This document shows positions 1 to 29,866 of a DNA stretch of 40,547 nucleotides, in pieces. A program made the position numbers and the translations under genes. The notes under the pieces were generated by a model. The model did no database searches and had not been told where the DNA came from. It saw only the letters and a program-made list of their open reading frames with translations. Source of the DNA: Escherichia phage MirsaeidiM_Esher2; the sequence record PQ464628.1, one strand, 5' to 3'. The number at the start of each line of letters is the position of its first letter. Within the stretch, counting starts at the first letter, position 1.

Positions 1-86
1 TCATTACTATATGTAGTGGCCTTTATGGTTAACACTAACTAGTGGAGGAGACTCTACGTGAAATCTGATAAACCGGGAGGGCAACT

Positions 87-536
87 ATGCTCGAATTTTT
101 AAAGAGAGCGGCTCCGTGGTTACTTGCAGCAGTGATGTTTGCTGGTGGATACCACACCGCTAACAATAAGTGGGAGGCTAAGGTAAATGAAGAATACACC
201 TCGAATCTTAAGGCATCGGAAGATACAAGGCTCGCTGTCCAAGCTGAAGTCAACAAAGTGTCCAAACGGTTTCAGGACGAAATGTCCTCGCTGGAAGGCA
301 GCACTGATAGGATTATTGCTGACCTTCAGTCTGACAATAAGCGGCTGCGCATCCGAGTCAAACCAACTAGTGGAACCACGCAAAGTGACGGTCGATGCGT
401 CATTGATGGTTACGCCGAACTTGACGAACGAGATGCTAAACGTCTTATCGCCGTCGGAGTGAAAGGAGACAAGTGGATTAAGGCCCTTCAGGACACTGTG
501 AGAGCCTTACAGCAAGAGAAGGAGGTGACGCATTGA
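87..536 (+). CDS. 18.5: Rz-like i-spanin (T7 gp18.5 homolog)
   Basis: 149-aa ORF; SD GGGAGGG upstream; N-terminal TM segment ([14 protein letters not shown]) then charged helical region; sits between small and large terminase as in T7. Confidence 0.8.
187..462 (+). CDS. 18.7: Rz1-like o-spanin lipoprotein embedded in Rz (+1 frame)
   Basis: ORF entirely inside 87..536 in another frame; lipobox-like LTISG-C followed by Pro-containing C-terminus; true start codon uncertain. Confidence 0.6.
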   Translation: MKNTPRILRHRKIQGSLSKLKSTKCPNGFRTKCPRWKAALIGLLLTFSLTISGCASESNQLVEPRKVTVDASLMVTPNLTNEMLNVLSPSE

Positions 537-2296
537 GTAAAGACTTAGTGGCGCGTCAGGCGCTAATGACTGCCCGTATGAAGGCAGACTTCGTGTTCTT
601 CCTGTTCGTCCTGTGGAAAGCTCTGTCACTCCCGGTCCCGACTCGCTGTCAGATTGACATGGCGAAGAAACTATCGGCTGGTGACAACAGGCGTTTCATC
701 CTACAGGCGTTCCGTGGTATCGGGAAGTCCTTCATTACGTGTGCATTCGTGGTCTGGAAACTATGGAACAACCCAGACTTGAAGTTCATGATTGTGTCGG
801 CCTCAAAGGAACGAGCCGATGCGAACTCCATCTTCATCAAGCGAATCATCGACCTCATGCCTCAGCTTCGGGAACTCAAACCTAAGCAGGGGCAGCGAGA
901 TGCGGTTATCAGCTTCGACGTTGGACCAGCCAAGCCAGACCACTCACCTTCGGTTAAGTCCGTTGGTATCACTGGTCAGTTGACTGGTAGTCGTGCTGAC
1001 ATCCTGATTGCCGATGACGTGGAGGTTCCGAACAACTCAGCGACTCAGGCTGCCCGAGACCGTCTGTCAGAGCTTGTGAAAGAGTTCGACGCTATCCTGA
1101 AGCCGGGAGGTACAATCATCTATCTGGGTACTCCTCAGAACGAGATGACCTTGTATCGTGAGCTGGAAGGCCGTGGGTACACCACTACTATCTGGCCTGC
1201 TCGTTATCCACGCGACAGGAAGGACTGGCAGTCTTACGGCGACCGTCTGGCTCCTATACTTCAGGCAGAGCTTGAAGAGGACCCTGAGTCCTTCTACTGG
1301 CGTCCGACCGACGAGGTACGCTTCGATGATACGGACCTGAAGGAACGTGAGTTGTCATATGGCAAGGCTGGCTTCGCTCTACAGTTCATGCTTAACCCGA
1401 ACCTGAGTGATGCTGAGAAGTACCCTCTGAAGCTACGTGACCTTATCGTAGCCGACTTGGACCCAGCGTCTAGCCCAATGGTATACCAATGGCTTCCTAA
1501 CCCTCAGAACAAGCGTGAGGACGTTCCTAACGTTGGACTCATGGGTGACTCATACCACACGTATCAGACTGTAGGTTCTGCCTTCAGTTCGTACACCCAG
1601 AAGATTCTGGTCATTGACCCTAGTGGTCGTGGTAAAGATGAAACTGGTTATGCGGTACTGTACCAGCTCAACGGCTACATCTTCGCTATGGAAGTTGGCG
1701 GTATGCGAGGTGGCTATGAAGACTCTACGCTGGAAGCCTTGGCTAAGATTGGTCGTAAGTGGAAGGTCAACGAATACGTCATTGAGGGTAACTTCGGTGA
1801 TGGTATGTACCTTGAGCTATTCAAGCCTGTAGCGGCCCGTATTCATCCTGCTGCTGTAACTGAAGTGAAGAGTAAGGGTCAGAAGGAACTCCGCATCTGT
1901 GACGTTCTGGAGCCTATCATGGGGTCTCACCGACTTATCGTTAACGCTGCTGCTATCGTCCAAGACTACCAGTCAGCCTCTGATAAGGATGGTGTGCGTA
2001 ACCCTATCTACTCTCTCTTCTACCAGATGACCCGTATCTCTCGTGAACGTGGAGCATTGGCACACGATGACCGACTTGATGCGCTGGCTATCGGTGTACA
2101 GTTCTTCGTTGAGTCTATGGCGAAGGATGCCAACAAAGGCGAACGTGAAGTCACTGAGGAGTGGCTGGAAGAACAGATGGAGAACCCACGGAAAGGCTTC
2201 GAGTCCATCCACACGGAGTTCTGGGACAATGGGGTCCGGGTAACTCACGATACGGACGACGAGCTGGGACTAGGGTCCTACGTTACGTTCCACTAG
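533..2296 (+). CDS. 19: terminase large subunit (T7 gp19 homolog)
   Basis: 587 aa; colinear with T7 gp19 as recalled ([32 protein letters not shown]); TTG start at 533 overlapping the Rz stop (TTGA), SD GGAGG 7 nt upstream. Confidence 0.95.
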
Positions 2297-2390
2297 CTGA
2301 ATGAATAACTATAGGCGAAAACTGAATTAATAAGCAGTTAGTAACCTATAGTTACTACCAGACTAACCTACTGTTTTATAAGGAGTTTGG

Positions 2391-2413
2391 ACTTAACTAT
2401 CACTATAGGGAAG
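2391..2413 (+). promoter_or_regulatory. phage-RNAP promoter, phiOR-like (ACTTAACTATCACTATAGGGAAG)
   Basis: Matches the recurring 23-bp motif found 11 times in the window; lies after gene 19 and before the gene 19.5-like ORF, as phiOR does in T7. Confidence 0.7.
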
Positions 2414-2592
2414 ACCCCCGGTTACTTATAGTATTACTGTAGTGAATATACATATGCAGACTTTATGCAAGACCTTAGGAGGCAGACTCCGAGTTCTTAC
2501 CTAAGGCTTGCACCGATGGAAGGAGGGCGATATTAATCATAATCCCTCCAATACAGATAGTAAAGACCATAGATACAGGAGGTATGTAGCAT

Positions 2593-2751
2593 ATGGCAAA
2601 GACCAAAGCTGTACTTAAAGCTCTGGCGACCAATCGAGCTACATACAGGTTTCTTGCTGCTGTTCTACTTACTGCTGGCGTTACTACTGGAAGTCAGTGG
2701 GTCGGGTGGGTCGAGACTCTCGTATGTTCTCTGGTGTCTGAGTGTCATTAA
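2593..2751 (+). CDS. 19.5: small protein, T7 gp19.5-like (52 aa)
   Basis: ATG with SD AGGAGG 10 nt upstream; hydrophobic 52-aa product with RxTYRFL motif resembling recalled T7 gp19.5; below the 60-aa cutoff of the ORF track. Confidence 0.5.
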   Translation: MAKTKAVLKALATNRATYRFLAAVLLTAGVTTGSQWVGWVETLVCSLVSECH

Positions 2752-2860
2752 CGCCGTAATGGTAACAATCAACGAAAGGAGGTAGGGATGGACGAGGAGT
2801 CTTATGGGTCGTTCTCTGACGAAGATTATCAGACGGAGTGGGAATACTCGCATTGAAGAC

Positions 2861-2901
2861 CTAAGGTCAGTTCATAGCTGACGCTACTCTACTGACCTTA
2901 G
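2861..2901. repeat. perfect 10-bp inverted repeat (CTAAGGTCAG / CTGACCTTAG) with 21-nt loop
   Basis: Arms at 2861..2870 and 2892..2901 are exact reverse complements; located in the right-end non-coding region. Confidence 0.6.
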
Positions 2902-2988
2902 CTACTGTAGTCAAGGACTTTAGGTAACACCTTAAGAGAAGCTCACTTAGGGTCATCCTACTTATTGGTCCATCCTAGTGTCGCCTGA

Positions 2989-3025
2989 CCTACGGTCCTT
3001 GACCTACAGTGGCTGTGGCCTACAG
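2989..3025. repeat. short repeats CCTAC(A/G)G x3, right-end side
   Basis: CCTACGG at 2989, CCTACAG at 3003 and 3019; same motif as the array at 3266..3367; analogous to the CCTAAAG-type repeats near T7 ends. Confidence 0.5.
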
Positions 3026-10366: not shown

Positions 10367-10627
10367 ATGTCTAAGAACTTAATGTTCAACCGTTATTCCA
10401 ATACCTTCCACCTGTCTCACAACCCGTTCGCTTGCATTAAGCGCAACGAGAAGCTGGGATACTTCGGGAAGGCTGTTAAGTTATCACCTACAGTCTACGC
10501 TCTGATTACTCCGGGCAGAGCTGAAGAGGCGCGCCAGAAGCGTGAGACCAACGTACCTGTGGTCTACACTAAGTGGCCTCGCGTTCGTCTGTTCGTTGAG
10601 TTCGTGAAGGAGGTGATCAATGCTTAA
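10367..10627 (+). CDS. hypothetical class II small protein (T7 gp1.5/1.6 position)
   Basis: 86 aa; SD AAGGAG upstream; assigned by position only. Confidence 0.6.
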   Translation: MSKNLMFNRYSNTFHLSHNPFACIKRNEKLGYFGKAVKLSPTVYALITPGRAEEARQKRETNVPVVYTKWPRVRLFVEFVKEVINA

Positions 10628-16112: not shown

Positions 16113-18284
16113 ATGTTTGACATTAAGAGTATCTGGGGTTCTGACATCGAGACCAACGGTCTCCTTGATACAGTCTCCCAGTTTCACTGTGGGGTCCTGA
16201 TTAACGCCGAGTCGAATGAGACCCTTAAGTACGGGGTAGCTCCGATGGTCGGTATCGTCGGTGGCTTCAAAGAGTATGTTCATAAAGTGGAAGAGATTGC
16301 CGCATCACCTGATGGTATGCTGGTATTCCATAACGGTATCAACTATGACGTCCCGGCTATAGACAAGCTGAAGCGTTTGTACTTTGGGAAACGCTTTAAC
16401 TTCCCGAAACATAAGATGATTGATACCTTGGTGCTGGGACGCTTGATGTATCCAAACATTAAGTTCTCAGACATGGGCGCAGTGAAAGCTGGTCGTCTTC
16501 CACCTAAGATGATGGGACGCCAGTCTCTTGAGGCTTGGGGCTATCGTCTCGGTGAGATGAAAGGTGAGTACAAACACGATTACGTTGCCAAGTGCAAGGC
16601 TGAAGGCATCGAATATAAGGCTGGGGACGAATGGTTGTTCCCGTCTCAGGAGATGCTGGACTATAACGTTCAAGACGTTGTGGTCACACTGGCGTTGTTC
16701 AAGAAGTTCCTGACTGACAAGTATTACTTCCAGTCTGAACAGTTCGCTTTCGAACAGATTTATGCGTTGCGTCTGGAACACGATGCTGCGTGGACCTGTG
16801 CGAAGATGGAGCGTAACGGCTATCCGATGAACACCGAGATGGTCGAAGGCTTATATCGTGAACTCACCGTCAAACGTGCGGAGCTGCTGGACAAGCTGCG
16901 TTCGACTTTCGGCAGCTGGTACGCACCAAAGGGAGGAAAGGAGTTCTTCAAGCACCCACGGACAGGCAAGGACCTTCCGAAGTATCCGAGAGTCGTGTAT
17001 CCTAAGGTCGGTGTCATCTTTAAGAAGCCGAAGAACAAAGCTCAACGCTTAGGTCTTGAACCTTGTGAACTCGATACGCGAGACACGATGGAGGGAGCAC
17101 CATTCACGCCAATCACTTACGTTGAGTTTAATCCGGGAAGCGGAGACCACTTAGCGAAAGTATTGATGGAGCGTGGCTGGGAGCCTGTGGACTTCACTGA
17201 CACAGGGAAACCTGTAGTCGATGACGAGACGTTGGAACACGTTAAGTTACCAGACGCAGAGGCTCAGGCTTGCGTAGAGCTGGTCCGTGAGTATCTGGTA
17301 GTCCAGAAGCGAATCGGTCAGGCGGCTGAAGGTAAGAACGCATGGTTGAAACTTGTAGGTCCAGACGGACGTATGCACGGTTCAATCAACCCTTGTGGAG
17401 CAGTAACCGGACGTGCGACCCATAGTTCACCAAACATGGCTCAGGTCCCGGCTAACGGTGCTCCGTATGGTGAGACTTGCCGTGGTGCTTTCGGTGCAGC
17501 GTGGAACAAGAAGGATGGCAAGCCAGACCCTTGGATTCAAGTAGGTGTGGATGCTTCAGGTCTTGAGCTTCGTTGTCTGGGGAACCGAGCGGCTCCGTTT
17601 GATGGTGGCGACTATGCGAAGACTGTGGTCGAAGGTGACATCCACTGGGCCAACGCAGTCAACGCTGGGTTAGCACCTAACGTCCCACGCGACAAGTCCA
17701 GCCACGACCACGATGCTTTCCGTAACAACGCCAAGACGTTCATCTATGCGTTTCTGTATGGTGCAGGTGCCGCTAAGATTGGACTGATTGTAGGCGGTGG
17801 TAAGAAGGAAGGCGCGGCCCTGATGAAGAAATTTATTGAGGGTACACCAGCTATCAAGGACCTGCGAGAGGCTGTCCAGAACACGCTCATCTCCGAGTCC
17901 AAGTGGGTAGATGGTGAGAACATCGTGAAGTGGAAACGCCGCTGGCTTAAAGGTCTGGACGGTCGACGCATTCACATCCGGTCTCCACACTCAGCACTTA
18001 ACGCCTTGCTTCAAGGTGATGGTGCGGTGGTCTGCAAGCACTGGATAGTCGAGACCGAGCGTATGCTCGAAGAGGCCGGGTATGTCCACGGCTGGGAAGG
18101 AGACTTCGCGTACATGGCTTGGGTCCACGATGAGCTACAGATTGCGTGTCGCACTCAGGAGATTGCCGAAGAAGTCGTCAAGATTGCTCAACTTGCTATG
18201 CGTAAGGTGGGCGAGTTCTATAACTTTAAATGTGTGTTAGACACGGAGGGTAAAATTGGACCAACGTGGAAAGAATGCCATTGA
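16113..18284 (+). CDS. 5: DNA polymerase (T7 gp5 homolog, family A)
   Basis: 723 aa; FHNGINYDVPA, AVTGRATHSSPNMAQ, NAKTFIYAFLYGAG, AYMAWVHDELQ, C-terminal GKIGPTWKECH match recalled T7 gp5. Confidence 0.97.
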   Translation: MFDIKSIWGSDIETNGLLDTVSQFHCGVLINAESNETLKYGVAPMVGIVGGFKEYVHKVEEIAASPDGMLVFHNGINYDVPAIDKLKRLYFGKRFNFPKHKMIDTLVLGRLMYPNIKFSDMGAVKAGRLPPKMMGRQSLEAWGYRLGEMKGEYKHDYVAKCKAEGIEYKAGDEWLFPSQEMLDYNVQDVVVTLALFKKFLTDKYYFQSEQFAFEQIYALRLEHDAAWTCAKMERNGYPMNTEMVEGLYRELTVKRAELLDKLRSTFGSWYAPKGGKEFFKHPRTGKDLPKYPRVVYPKVGVIFKKPKNKAQRLGLEPCELDTRDTMEGAPFTPITYVEFNPGSGDHLAKVLMERGWEPVDFTDTGKPVVDDETLEHVKLPDAEAQACVELVREYLVVQKRIGQAAEGKNAWLKLVGPDGRMHGSINPCGAVTGRATHSSPNMAQVPANGAPYGETCRGAFGAAWNKKDGKPDPWIQVGVDASGLELRCLGNRAAPFDGGDYAKTVVEGDIHWANAVNAGLAPNVPRDKSSHDHDAFRNNAKTFIYAFLYGAGAAKIGLIVGGGKKEGAALMKKFIEGTPAIKDLREAVQNTLISESKWVDGENIVKWKRRWLKGLDGRRIHIRSPHSALNALLQGDGAVVCKHWIVETERMLEEAGYVHGWEGDFAYMAWVHDELQIACRTQEIAEEVVKIAQLAMRKVGEFYNFKCVLDTEGKIGPTWKECH

Positions 18285-18654
18285 CGGAAAGTCCCTGCAT
18301 TTTACAGGCGCTGCGAGCGAGCTGTATGCAAGTTACCGACTGACATCTATTGGACACCAAGTCTTCCTACCAGCGTTCACCCAGTCCAAAGCGGACTTAG
18401 TGGTGGATATTAACGGGACCCTTAAGAGGGTTCAGGTGAAGACTGGGACCAAGCTGAAGAACTGCAATAGCATTCAGGTCCGACTCGGTGGGTGCGGAAA
18501 GCCCACCTACAGCCCGGGAGAGATTGACCTACTGGCTGTGGTCTATCAGGATAACTTCTGGCTGATTCCGTTCGTGGAAGAAGTGAGGCTTAAAACCTCC
18601 ATGTGTATAAACCTAACGTCCGACAAGAAGTACGGACACTTTAAACAGGAGTAA
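18256..18654 (+). CDS. hypothetical protein (132 aa), possible PD-(D/E)xK-like nuclease fold
   Basis: TTG start with GGAGGG 5 nt upstream, overlapping the end of gene 5; contains D-x(n)-QVK arrangement (ADLVVDINGTLKRVQVK); function is inference only. Confidence 0.5.
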   Translation: MDQRGKNAIDGKSLHFTGAASELYASYRLTSIGHQVFLPAFTQSKADLVVDINGTLKRVQVKTGTKLKNCNSIQVRLGGCGKPTYSPGEIDLLAVVYQDNFWLIPFVEEVRLKTSMCINLTSDKKYGHFKQE

Positions 18655-18950: not shown

Positions 18951-19156
18951 GTGAATACTTACGGGTCCTAGCGGCCCTTAAGTCCTGCCCGAAGACCTTT
19001 CAGTCCAACTATGTGCGCAACAATGCAGCACTGGTGGCTGAGGCTGCGAGTCGTGGACATCTAAGCTGCCTGTCTATGGACGGGCGTAACAACGGTGCGT
19101 GGGAGATTACCGCCGAAGGCGTTAAGTTCCTGAACCAACACGGAGGCTGTCTATGA
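18947..19156 (+). CDS. 5.7: gp5.7-like protein
   Basis: 69 aa; LKSCPKTFQSNYVRNNAALVAEAASRGH..GAWEIT matches recalled T7 gp5.7; start overlaps previous stop. Confidence 0.75.
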   Translation: MSEYLRVLAALKSCPKTFQSNYVRNNAALVAEAASRGHLSCLSMDGRNNGAWEITAEGVKFLNQHGGCL

Positions 19157-19602
19157 AGATACCTGAAAGTCTGAAAGAGCTGGTCCTTGAAATGGGTGAG
19201 TGCGAGATGACGCACCGTAAGTATGCTGAGTTCTACGCATCTTGGTCTTACACCCTGACCGAGAAGGACGTTGAGTCCTACACCGAGTCTCCTTCTGAGG
19301 CTTATGAGTGGAGTCCGTTCATCGGACTGACCATCGTAGCTAGCGGTATGTGGGATGACAGCTACGGCTCAGAGGTAAACGACTGGGACGTGTACCGCCA
19401 AGTTGAGAAGGAGACCGAAATGTCGTCCAACTTCTGGAGCCTGATGTCCCACCTCAACTCAGATGACAACGACATGGCCCATGAGTTCGCCAACAAATGG
19501 CTGAAGCCTGAGGTGACTCTGGAACGTATTGAGGAGCCTAAAGTTCCCTTGATGCCATATGCAGTCGCTATGGCTACAGGAGGTCTGGACGATGGGTGCT
19601 GA
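19153..19602 (+). CDS. hypothetical highly acidic protein (149 aa) at the gp5.9 position
   Basis: SD GGAGG 6 nt upstream; strongly acidic composition; lies between gene 5.7 and the exonuclease gene. Confidence 0.6.
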   Translation: MKIPESLKELVLEMGECEMTHRKYAEFYASWSYTLTEKDVESYTESPSEAYEWSPFIGLTIVASGMWDDSYGSEVNDWDVYRQVEKETEMSSNFWSLMSHLNSDDNDMAHEFANKWLKPEVTLERIEEPKVPLMPYAVAMATGGLDDGC

Positions 19603-21187: not shown

Positions 21188-21610
21188 ATGCTACCATATC
21201 TCAACTCACGCGAAGGTCGCCACATGTGCGCTTGTCGCCTCTGGGAAGACGGGCAGTCTAACTTCAAGTCATTTGAGGACTTCAAAGCTCATACTTACCG
21301 TATGGCTGACGAGTTCGATGGTGAAGAGTACACAATCTACGATGTCTCAGGTCAACCAGTAGCGTATCTCTACATGCTGGCTACCGCATCTTGGCACCGA
21401 CCGACTCCCGGTCTTGACCTTTCAATAGTCGCTATTCGTCGTGACTCGCAGTCCTCCCGCAAGGTTCTTGAGACTGTCAGACACATCATAGACGAAGAGT
21501 GCAAGCGTTGGGGTCTTGGCTGGTATTCTCGTGTCAAGCATGTTTCCGGGTCGGTAGACATCGTAACAACCAAGTGCGTTAGCACGAACAAGGAGATTAA
21601 CCGTGGGTAA
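21188..21610 (+). CDS. gp7-like protein (by position)
   Basis: 140 aa; follows gp6.7 and precedes gp7.3 as in T7; no sequence motif verified. Confidence 0.55.
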   Translation: MLPYLNSREGRHMCACRLWEDGQSNFKSFEDFKAHTYRMADEFDGEEYTIYDVSGQPVAYLYMLATASWHRPTPGLDLSIVAIRRDSQSSRKVLETVRHIIDEECKRWGLGWYSRVKHVSGSVDIVTTKCVSTNKEINRG

Positions 21611-21851
21611 ATCAATCAGTAAGGCTTTCAAGAAAGTGGTGAAAAGTACGTTAGGGACAGTGGGTCTTGGCTCTGACGATGCACCTAAGGTTGTTGCGGC
21701 TCAGACCCCAGCAGCGCCAGTGGAAGTACCGAACGATAAAGTGGAAGATGTGGATACCGAAGCAACAGCATCTGACGAGAAGAAAGTGAAGCGTTCCGGT
21801 AAGCGTAGCCTTCAGGTCTCTCGTACCTCTGGTGGCGGTATTTCTATTTAA
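21603..21851 (+). CDS. 7.3: gp7.3-like tail-associated protein
   Basis: 82 aa; GTG start with AGGAG 7 nt upstream; basic N-terminus and C-terminal SGGGISI resemble recalled T7 gp7.3. Confidence 0.7.
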   Translation: MGKSISKAFKKVVKSTLGTVGLGSDDAPKVVAAQTPAAPVEVPNDKVEDVDTEATASDEKKVKRSGKRSLQVSRTSGGGISI

Positions 21852-29021: not shown

Positions 29022-29483
29022 ATGTATATTCGCAAGGCTACGGATGTAGACGTTTGGTACGCTGCTGCACAACTTACAGATGACGACTTAGAGGAGTGTA
29101 AAGCCAACTACGGGACCACTGAAGGTCTCGCTGAAAGGATGCAAGCACACCTAACGTCTTCATCTGTGGTTTTGACTAACGCTACTGGGGACATTTACGC
29201 CTATGGAGGCAACCAAGGTGACAACGTTTGGTTCCTGACAACCAGAATGACCGAGCGTCTCCCACCTAAAGGTAAGCGAGAGTTCCGTGAGAGAGTAATG
29301 GAGTATCGTGACAAGATGCTGGAGGACTACCCGGTACTATGGAACTACGTCTGGGAAGGCAATGCGTCCCACATCCGGTTTCTCAAGTCAATAGGCGCTA
29401 AGTTCCACGACGATAAGTGGACCAGAAGTCCAGTGACTGGAGAAGTATTCATTCTATTCACAATCACCAAGGAGGACACGTGA
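29022..29483 (+). CDS. gp13-like internal virion/assembly protein (by position)
   Basis: 153 aa; SD AAGGAG; first gene after the phi13-like promoter. Confidence 0.65.
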
Positions 29484-29866
29484 CTAAGGTCTGTACCGTC
29501 TGTAAAATTGAAAAGCCACTAGAAGCGTTCTCTCCACGGAAAGACTCTAAGTGTGGTGTACGCTCTGCCTGTAAGCTGTGTCATAATGGACGGAGCCACA
29601 AGAACAAGGGATACGAGAAGTATCACATTACGCAGATAGAATATGATTCCATCCTAAAAGAGCAGGGCGGGGTCTGCGCAATCTGCAAGACATTAGGAAC
29701 TAGCCGAGGATTATGTGTTGACCACTGTCACACCTCCGGGAAAGTCCGAGGAATCCTATGTCATACCTGCAACCTAAAGCTGACCCGTAGAAACTACCAC
29801 TCTACATGCGAAGATTTCGATGGTAAGGCTGCTGAGTATCTGGCTACAAGCCGGAAGGGGGATTAG
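29480..29866 (+). CDS. endonuclease VII-like His-Me finger (HNH superfamily) nuclease
   Basis: Motif C-x2-C...[21 protein letters not shown] (endo VII signature) plus an N-terminal Cys cluster; no ATG in frame, GTG at 29480 with AAGGAGG 4 nt upstream overlaps the gp13 stop (GTGA); ORF track gives 29417. Confidence 0.7.

Follow-up and report, generated by a model that had tools for sequence, protein, structure and literature searches.

The 40,547-nucleotide DNA of Escherichia phage MirsaeidiM_Esher2 (PQ464628.1), analysed here in full and called the window, begins with an Rz-like i-spanin gene (gp18.5; 87..536, + strand) whose stop codon overlaps the start of the next gene. Bases 533-536 read TTGA, and the TTG at 533-535 overlaps the Rz stop TGA at 534-536. 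The Rz-like ORF was taken from the ORF list; its Pfam Phage_lysis match falls just under the curated cut-off (23.6 bits vs 25.4), and 18.5 or an i-spanin is annotated at the equivalent place in phages K1F and Pipis. From the TTG, the terminase large subunit gene (TerL, gp19) runs over 533..2296 on the + strand and encodes 587 aa with Pfam matches PF22530 and PF03237. Three further genes of the window carry non-ATG starts, namely gp7.3 (GTG), an endonuclease VII-like gene (GTG) and a 132-aa ORF (TTG). The initial annotation had described these four as essential genes with good Shine-Dalgarno (SD) sequences, whose starts are often misplaced by automated callers.

Comparing bases 1-3000 with public genomes, we found 97.5% identity over 3 kb to both GenBank K1F records and 96-97% identity to numerous further genomes of Kayfunavirus. 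The window has the usual T7-type ORF map, circularly permuted with Rz as the first gene, and this layout agrees with the annotations of K1F and Pipis. The long ORFs all lie on the + strand, and the tailspike ORF (1064 aa) equals K1F gp17 in length. By identity and gene order, the window is a Kayfunavirus genome, that is, a K1F-like member of the Studiervirinae and a T7-family coliphage.

Upstream of the TerL start lies an extended SD, AAGGAGGTGA (519..528, + strand), 4 nt from the TTG. Ten consecutive bases of this SD pair with the 16S rRNA tail, giving a duplex energy of -17.4 kcal/mol. We calculated the SD pairing energy against the 16S tail for all 499 TTG and 723 GTG triplets on the + strand as the background. 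A simple SD-based gene caller mis-set several long genes (RNA polymerase, ligase) and was used only for the SD background statistics. The TerL SD was the strongest at any TTG in the window, since only 1 of the 499 TTG triplets (0.2%) reached -17. The reading frame of TerL is closed by a stop at 479-481 and opens at 482; TTG 533 is its first ATG, GTG or TTG codon and the only start codon ahead of the conserved N-terminal region. The SD energies at the in-frame alternatives were -2.2 (GTG 548), -2.8 (ATG 566) and -2.0 (ATG 578). When the protein is initiated at the TTG, its residues 1-579 align to residues 1-579 of a solved large terminase (PDB 8dgc chain E, E = 2.9e-246). Its domain content and full-length collinearity identify the protein as a T7-type terminase large subunit (gp19). 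SD duplex energies near -17 are common to four genes in the window, TerL, the 144-aa ORF at 10620, the portal gene (21863) and the small terminase gene (40214), of which only TerL starts with a non-ATG codon. Analysing RNA folding around 533 and SD/start accessibility for 24 starts, we saw no structure-gated coupling device; the predicted fold was ordinary (z = -1.24) and speaks neither for nor against coupling, and the accessibility was within the range seen for genes starting with ATG.

The TTG and the strong SD are kept in every Kayfunavirus TerL locus examined (80 IMG/VR relatives plus GenBank records), and the frame from the TTG runs without an indel or a stop in every one of these relatives. 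K1F (AM084414) has the identical sequence around the TerL start (caagagaaggaggtgacgcaTTGagtaaagac), where the gp19 TTG is annotated and overlaps the 18.5 stop. The TTG is thus invariant within the genus, and in sister clades an ATG or GTG is found no more than one codon away from 533. Two sister loci (L007 and L009) have the TerL ATG one codon upstream with a product beginning MSKK-, and the product of a T7-like locus (L018) begins MSKQ-. In T7, gene 19 likewise starts at a codon other than ATG, a GTG in the NC_001604 annotation, and this codon follows a strong SD (TAAGGAGG). The T7 gp19 N-terminus, VSTQSNRNALVVAQLKGDF, is collinear with that of the window TerL, and therefore the residues upstream of ATG 566 are homologous to T7 coding residues. 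The T7 start differs in being GTG and not TTG, and in lying 22 nt after the 18.5 stop without an overlap. This GTG start of T7 gene 19 is said to have been described by Dunn & Studier in 1983. Non-ATG TerL starts recur in several separate Autographiviridae clades.

The gp7.3 gene encodes an 82-aa tail/virion assembly protein (21603..21851, + strand; Pfam PF11653). Its GTG at 21603 follows the SD AAGGAG (21590..21595, + strand), which has an energy of -8.5 kcal/mol, a value reached by 4.8% of the + strand GTG triplets of the window. There is no ATG in the first 60 codons of this ORF. In 24 close relatives the SD is kept and the next codons are unchanged, while the start site itself is GTG in most, ATG in one (L114) and TTG in another (L123). 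Only the first base of the NTG varies, and the site thus behaves as a start codon, unlike a valine codon. The more distant relatives start with ATG and begin MG-, and the N-terminus reads MGKK in T7 and (f)MGKS in the window. K1F AM084414 has the GTG annotated for gp7.3, and the K1F and window products are 94% identical. According to the NC_001604 annotation note, gp7.3 is needed for infectivity in T7.

The endonuclease VII-like gene (gene 13.5-type, 128 aa; 29480..29866, + strand; Pfam PF02945) is an insertion of about 390 bp that separates gp13 from gp14. Its SD, AAGGAGG (29469..29475, + strand), lies inside the end of gp13 and has an energy of -11.4 kcal/mol, which 0.7% of the + strand GTG triplets reach. 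The start GTG at 29480 overlaps the gp13 stop TGA at 29481-29483 (GTGA). We also considered the mechanical ORF start, GTG 29417, and rejected it, since its SD energy is only -0.8 and the relatives begin at MTKVC. All the relatives compared share the MTKVC- N-terminus, with GTG in ZCEC02, U8 and pO91, and ATG in EcoDS1, Penshu1 and ST21. Gene 13.5 of EcoDS1 and Penshu1 further shares the insertion site between genes 13 and 14 and the PF02945 family; where the start is ATG, a separate gp13 stop comes first, whereas the window GTG overlaps this stop. The gene occurs in 13 of 215 related records sharing its flanks, the others joining gp13 to gp14 directly, and K1F AM084414 differs from the window in having no such gene between genes 13 and 14. 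This sporadic presence makes the gene look like a dispensable, homing-endonuclease-type insert.

Grouping the proteins into clusters at 90% identity, we found usable start variants only in the cluster of the 132-aa nuclease described below. Length variants that might have been mis-called gp7.3 or endonuclease VII-like starts were discarded, as the members of 122-140 aa (gp7-like) and of 156 aa (gp13) are unrelated neighbour products.

The 132-aa ORF (18256..18654, + strand; Pfam PF11645) is a PD-(D/E)XK nuclease gene homologous to T7 gene 5.3. It is 46% identical to T7 gp5.3, follows the DNA polymerase gene as gene 5.3 does in T7, and falls in the same Pfam family (PD-(D/E)XK_5). Its TTG at 18256 lies within the DNA polymerase gene (16113-18284), 29 nt from the 3′ end of the latter, whereas gene 5.3 of T7, Kvp1 and 64795_ec1 starts after the polymerase stop with its own SD and with ATG or GTG. 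The SD GGAGGG (18245..18250, + strand) is spelled by the polymerase codons for Thr-Glu-Gly, and the SD and TTG together by ACG GAG GGT AAA ATT GGA (T-E-G-K-I-G). The SD energy is -10.0 kcal/mol, and 2% of the + strand TTG triplets reach -10. The Pfam match begins at residue 17, the TGAASE motif being residues 17-22, and the next ATG, GTG or TTG is codon 49. No canonical start other than TTG 18256 would therefore leave the PD-(D/E)XK domain intact. The same TTG is annotated for this gene in SAKp10309 and phage 6925. The same SD and TTG are also present in K1F and Pipis, neither of which has the PD-(D/E)XK gene. The TTG is invariant at this site, and it is also fixed by the polymerase coding; its presence alone is thus no evidence of its use, and the argument is one of elimination. 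Since other nuclease genes occupy this spot in K1F and Pipis, the PD-(D/E)XK gene, too, looks like a dispensable insert of the homing-endonuclease type.

The same region varies in other ways among the relatives. In K1F AM084414 (L084, 12917-15686), the DNA polymerase gene is split, gene 5 being joined from two pieces around an unrelated 131-aa gp5.3 ORF that looks HNH-like by sequence inspection. In the window, the polymerase gene is uninterrupted with the same C-terminus (…KIGPTWKECH), and the PD-(D/E)XK gene lies downstream. In Pipis, the same +1 frame, followed from that TTG, runs past the polymerase stop without interruption for at least 28 further codons, and it passes an ATG (MPTGC...) upstream of the annotated HNH gene start. 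The junction right after '...gccattga' (window 18238-18290 region) seems to be a site at which nuclease cassettes are repeatedly exchanged.

At all four sites, an NTG lies 4-10 nt downstream of a motif complementary to the anti-SD, at the 5′ limit of a conserved protein. Few TTG or GTG triplets reach the SD energies seen here, and so the SDs at these starts are not due to chance. ATG, GTG and TTG interchange at the start position of gp7.3 (all three) and of the endonuclease VII-like gene (GTG and ATG). The starts named by the initial annotation are thereby borne out, as are the good SDs at all of them. We conclude, with a probability of about 0.9, that these are four ordinary bacterial-type starts at near-cognate codons in a K1F-like T7-family phage, a reading drawn from sequence comparison. 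The description of the genes as essential stands for TerL, the packaging ATPase/nuclease, and for gp7.3. It does not stand for the two nuclease genes, one found in only 13 of 215 records and the other absent from K1F and Pipis; both predicted nuclease ORFs show the sporadic presence of free-standing homing endonuclease genes.

Non-ATG starts are not in excess in this genome. About 4 of the 50 genes in the window have one, compared with 6 of 57 (all GTG) in the T7 reference annotation and 8 of 58 in K1F AM084414. Well-annotated bacterial genomes have 13.8% GTG and 4.35% TTG starts, about 18% together (bioRxiv 10.1101/063800), and the frequency in the window is at or below this baseline. A fifth candidate, GTG 23504 for the gp9 scaffold gene, was rejected, because T7 gp9 and the 294-aa K1F protein align with ATG 23540. 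Pipis annotates gp9 at this GTG (306 aa; SD energy -10.8, about 10-nt spacing), apparently a case in which a curated record extends the gene too far upstream, to a non-ATG codon. Elsewhere in the window, the exonuclease gene probably starts at ATG 19592, which has an SD (-11.5) and fits the K1F and Pipis lengths, and not at the mechanical ORF start ATG 19559. This gene is preceded, after gp5.7, by a 149-aa ORF (19153-19602) without a Pfam match, which is hypothetical in Pipis too.

Initiation at GUG and UUG, compensation by the SD and stop/start overlap are textbook features of bacterial translation. The initiator fMet-tRNA reads an SD-positioned GUG or UUG less efficiently than AUG, and the product starts with Met. 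At each of the four starts, the strong SD 4-7 nt upstream would position the 30S subunit, and the initiator fMet-tRNA would read the UUG or GUG, giving a protein that begins with (f)Met and not with Leu or Val. The weaker codon would lower the output relative to AUG. Because a stop and a start overlap at TerL (TTGA 533-536) and at the endonuclease VII-like gene (GTGA 29480-29483), ribosomes ending Rz or gp13 could re-initiate there. The 132-aa nuclease gene would rely for both its SD and its TTG on the codons of the conserved polymerase C-terminus (DTEGKIG). We infer that the four codons are used in vivo, that TerL and the endonuclease VII-like gene are translationally coupled to their upstream genes, and that the weak codons may hold expression down. 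Literature searches yielded nothing direct on N-termini determined experimentally for TerL proteins of the T7 family, nor on homing endonucleases that use non-AUG starts.

Weak start codons might also have been selected to throttle toxic or low-need proteins, here the packaging nuclease and the two selfish nucleases, which a strong SD or an overlap would tie to the upstream gene. We regard such selection as possible but doubtful. It fits with the stop/start overlap (TTGA or GTGA) seen at two of the four genes and with T7, whose GTG genes include gene 19 as well as 2.8 and 7.7, both named endonucleases in the record (7.7 HNH). However, gp7.3 is not a nuclease. We surveyed the TerL start contexts in related Autographiviridae loci (L004-L083, IMG/VR) using one crude calling rule, with controls that include doubtful ORFs. 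GTG or TTG occurred in 21 of 44 distinct TerL start contexts versus 40 of 145 neighbouring ORFs, an enrichment (Fisher p = 0.017) whose test ignores phylogeny and rests on the crude caller. Moreover, close relatives swap GTG, ATG and TTG freely at gp7.3 and the endonuclease VII-like gene, and sister clades have an ATG at TerL; the pattern thus looks like weak or no selection on the codon identity. Four ordinary near-cognate starts remain our preferred reading.

For the 132-aa gene, the single conceivable alternative start is a near-cognate ATT (18280-18282) that overlaps the polymerase stop (ATTGA) and would be reached by re-initiation; otherwise, the ORF could be an untranslated, decaying pseudogene. 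ATT is a very poor initiator in E. coli. Both the SD and the TTG can be seen as by-products of the polymerase codons and occur in K1F and Pipis as well, and in Zappy the SD before the TTG is weakened to GAGGG (-6.1). A start at the ATT would leave 7 residues before TGAASE, compared with 5 in T7 gp5.3, bringing the N-terminus closer in length to that of T7. However, no SD lies ahead of the ATT, and this codon appears only among the rarely annotated start codons (bioRxiv 10.1101/063800). The ORF also retains an intact Pfam domain, and more than 20 phage records keep all its 132 codons open, codons 1-9 included, at 88-98% identity. We therefore consider both the ATT start and the decaying pseudogene unlikely and retain the TTG at 18256 as the start of the PD-(D/E)XK gene.

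Checking how TerL is annotated in public records, we found the TTG in 10 of 12 sampled annotations, comprising K1F AM084414, the manually curated Pipis and eight further records. The second K1F record, DQ111067, places the start at an SD-less ATG 33 nt downstream of the TTG. A published table for Citrobacter phage SH3 likewise gives TerL 577 aa from the downstream ATG, with an "SD" of TCAGGCGCT and a best match of 587 aa (PMC4925675). This rival in-frame ATG lies at 566..568 on the + strand and would yield a 576-aa product. Counting substitutions over TerL codons 2-11 (537-565), we found that the first, second and third codon positions had 7, 7 and 8 variable columns, compared with 6, 6 and 18 over the next 25 codons. 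Such an even spread in the codon-position substitution test fits a weakly constrained coding tail as well as a spacer, and since codons 2-11 lack a third-position bias, our start call relies on the SD strength, homology and frame conservation.

A TerL start at ATG 566 or ATG 578, with 537-565 as an untranslated spacer and the upstream TTG and SD incidental or only ribosome-holding, agrees with DQ111067, with the SH3 entry ('TCAGGCGCTtATG'), with the missing third-position bias and with the Met at 566 retained in the Kayfunavirus and L007/L009 sequences, but it is very improbable given the feeble SD energies at 566 and 578 against that at 533, the frame open from 533 without indels in every relative, the alignment of the residues upstream of 566 (RQAL) with T7 gp19 coding residues (RNAL) and with PDB 8dgc residues 1-11, the Val or Ile that T7-group TerL proteins have in place of the Met encoded at 566, and a 15-billion-protein collection that holds the exact 587-aa TerL and not the 576-aa version. 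The TTG at 533 is thus kept as the TerL start.

The earlier statement that automated callers often misplace these starts is accordingly only partly right: for TerL the TTG is mostly used and DQ111067 and SH3 are the exceptions, while the PD-(D/E)XK start is the most often mis-annotated of the four. In ST53 and ST66, the latter gene is called from an internal ATG and cut to 101 aa, and in Zappy and YZ1 no gene is annotated under the PD-(D/E)XK match. The value of the four starts is mainly for annotation, and it is minor, as the best-curated K1F record already has those of TerL and gp7.3. Still, DQ111067 and SH3 shorten TerL by 11 residues, and having the right start matters to those who express or engineer terminases of the K1F type; several deposited genomes have a shortened 5.3-type nuclease gene or omit it.

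In summary, all four starts are ordinary, public annotations of the same family (K1F and T7) already record such starts, and no new biology is implied by their presence. More speculatively, the 5.3-type nuclease gene may have lost its own ribosome-binding site and may now borrow the SD and start from the invariant C-terminal codons of the polymerase. Equally tentatively, TerL and the selfish nucleases may be held at a low dosage through the pairing of a weak start codon with a near-maximal SD or a stop/start overlap.
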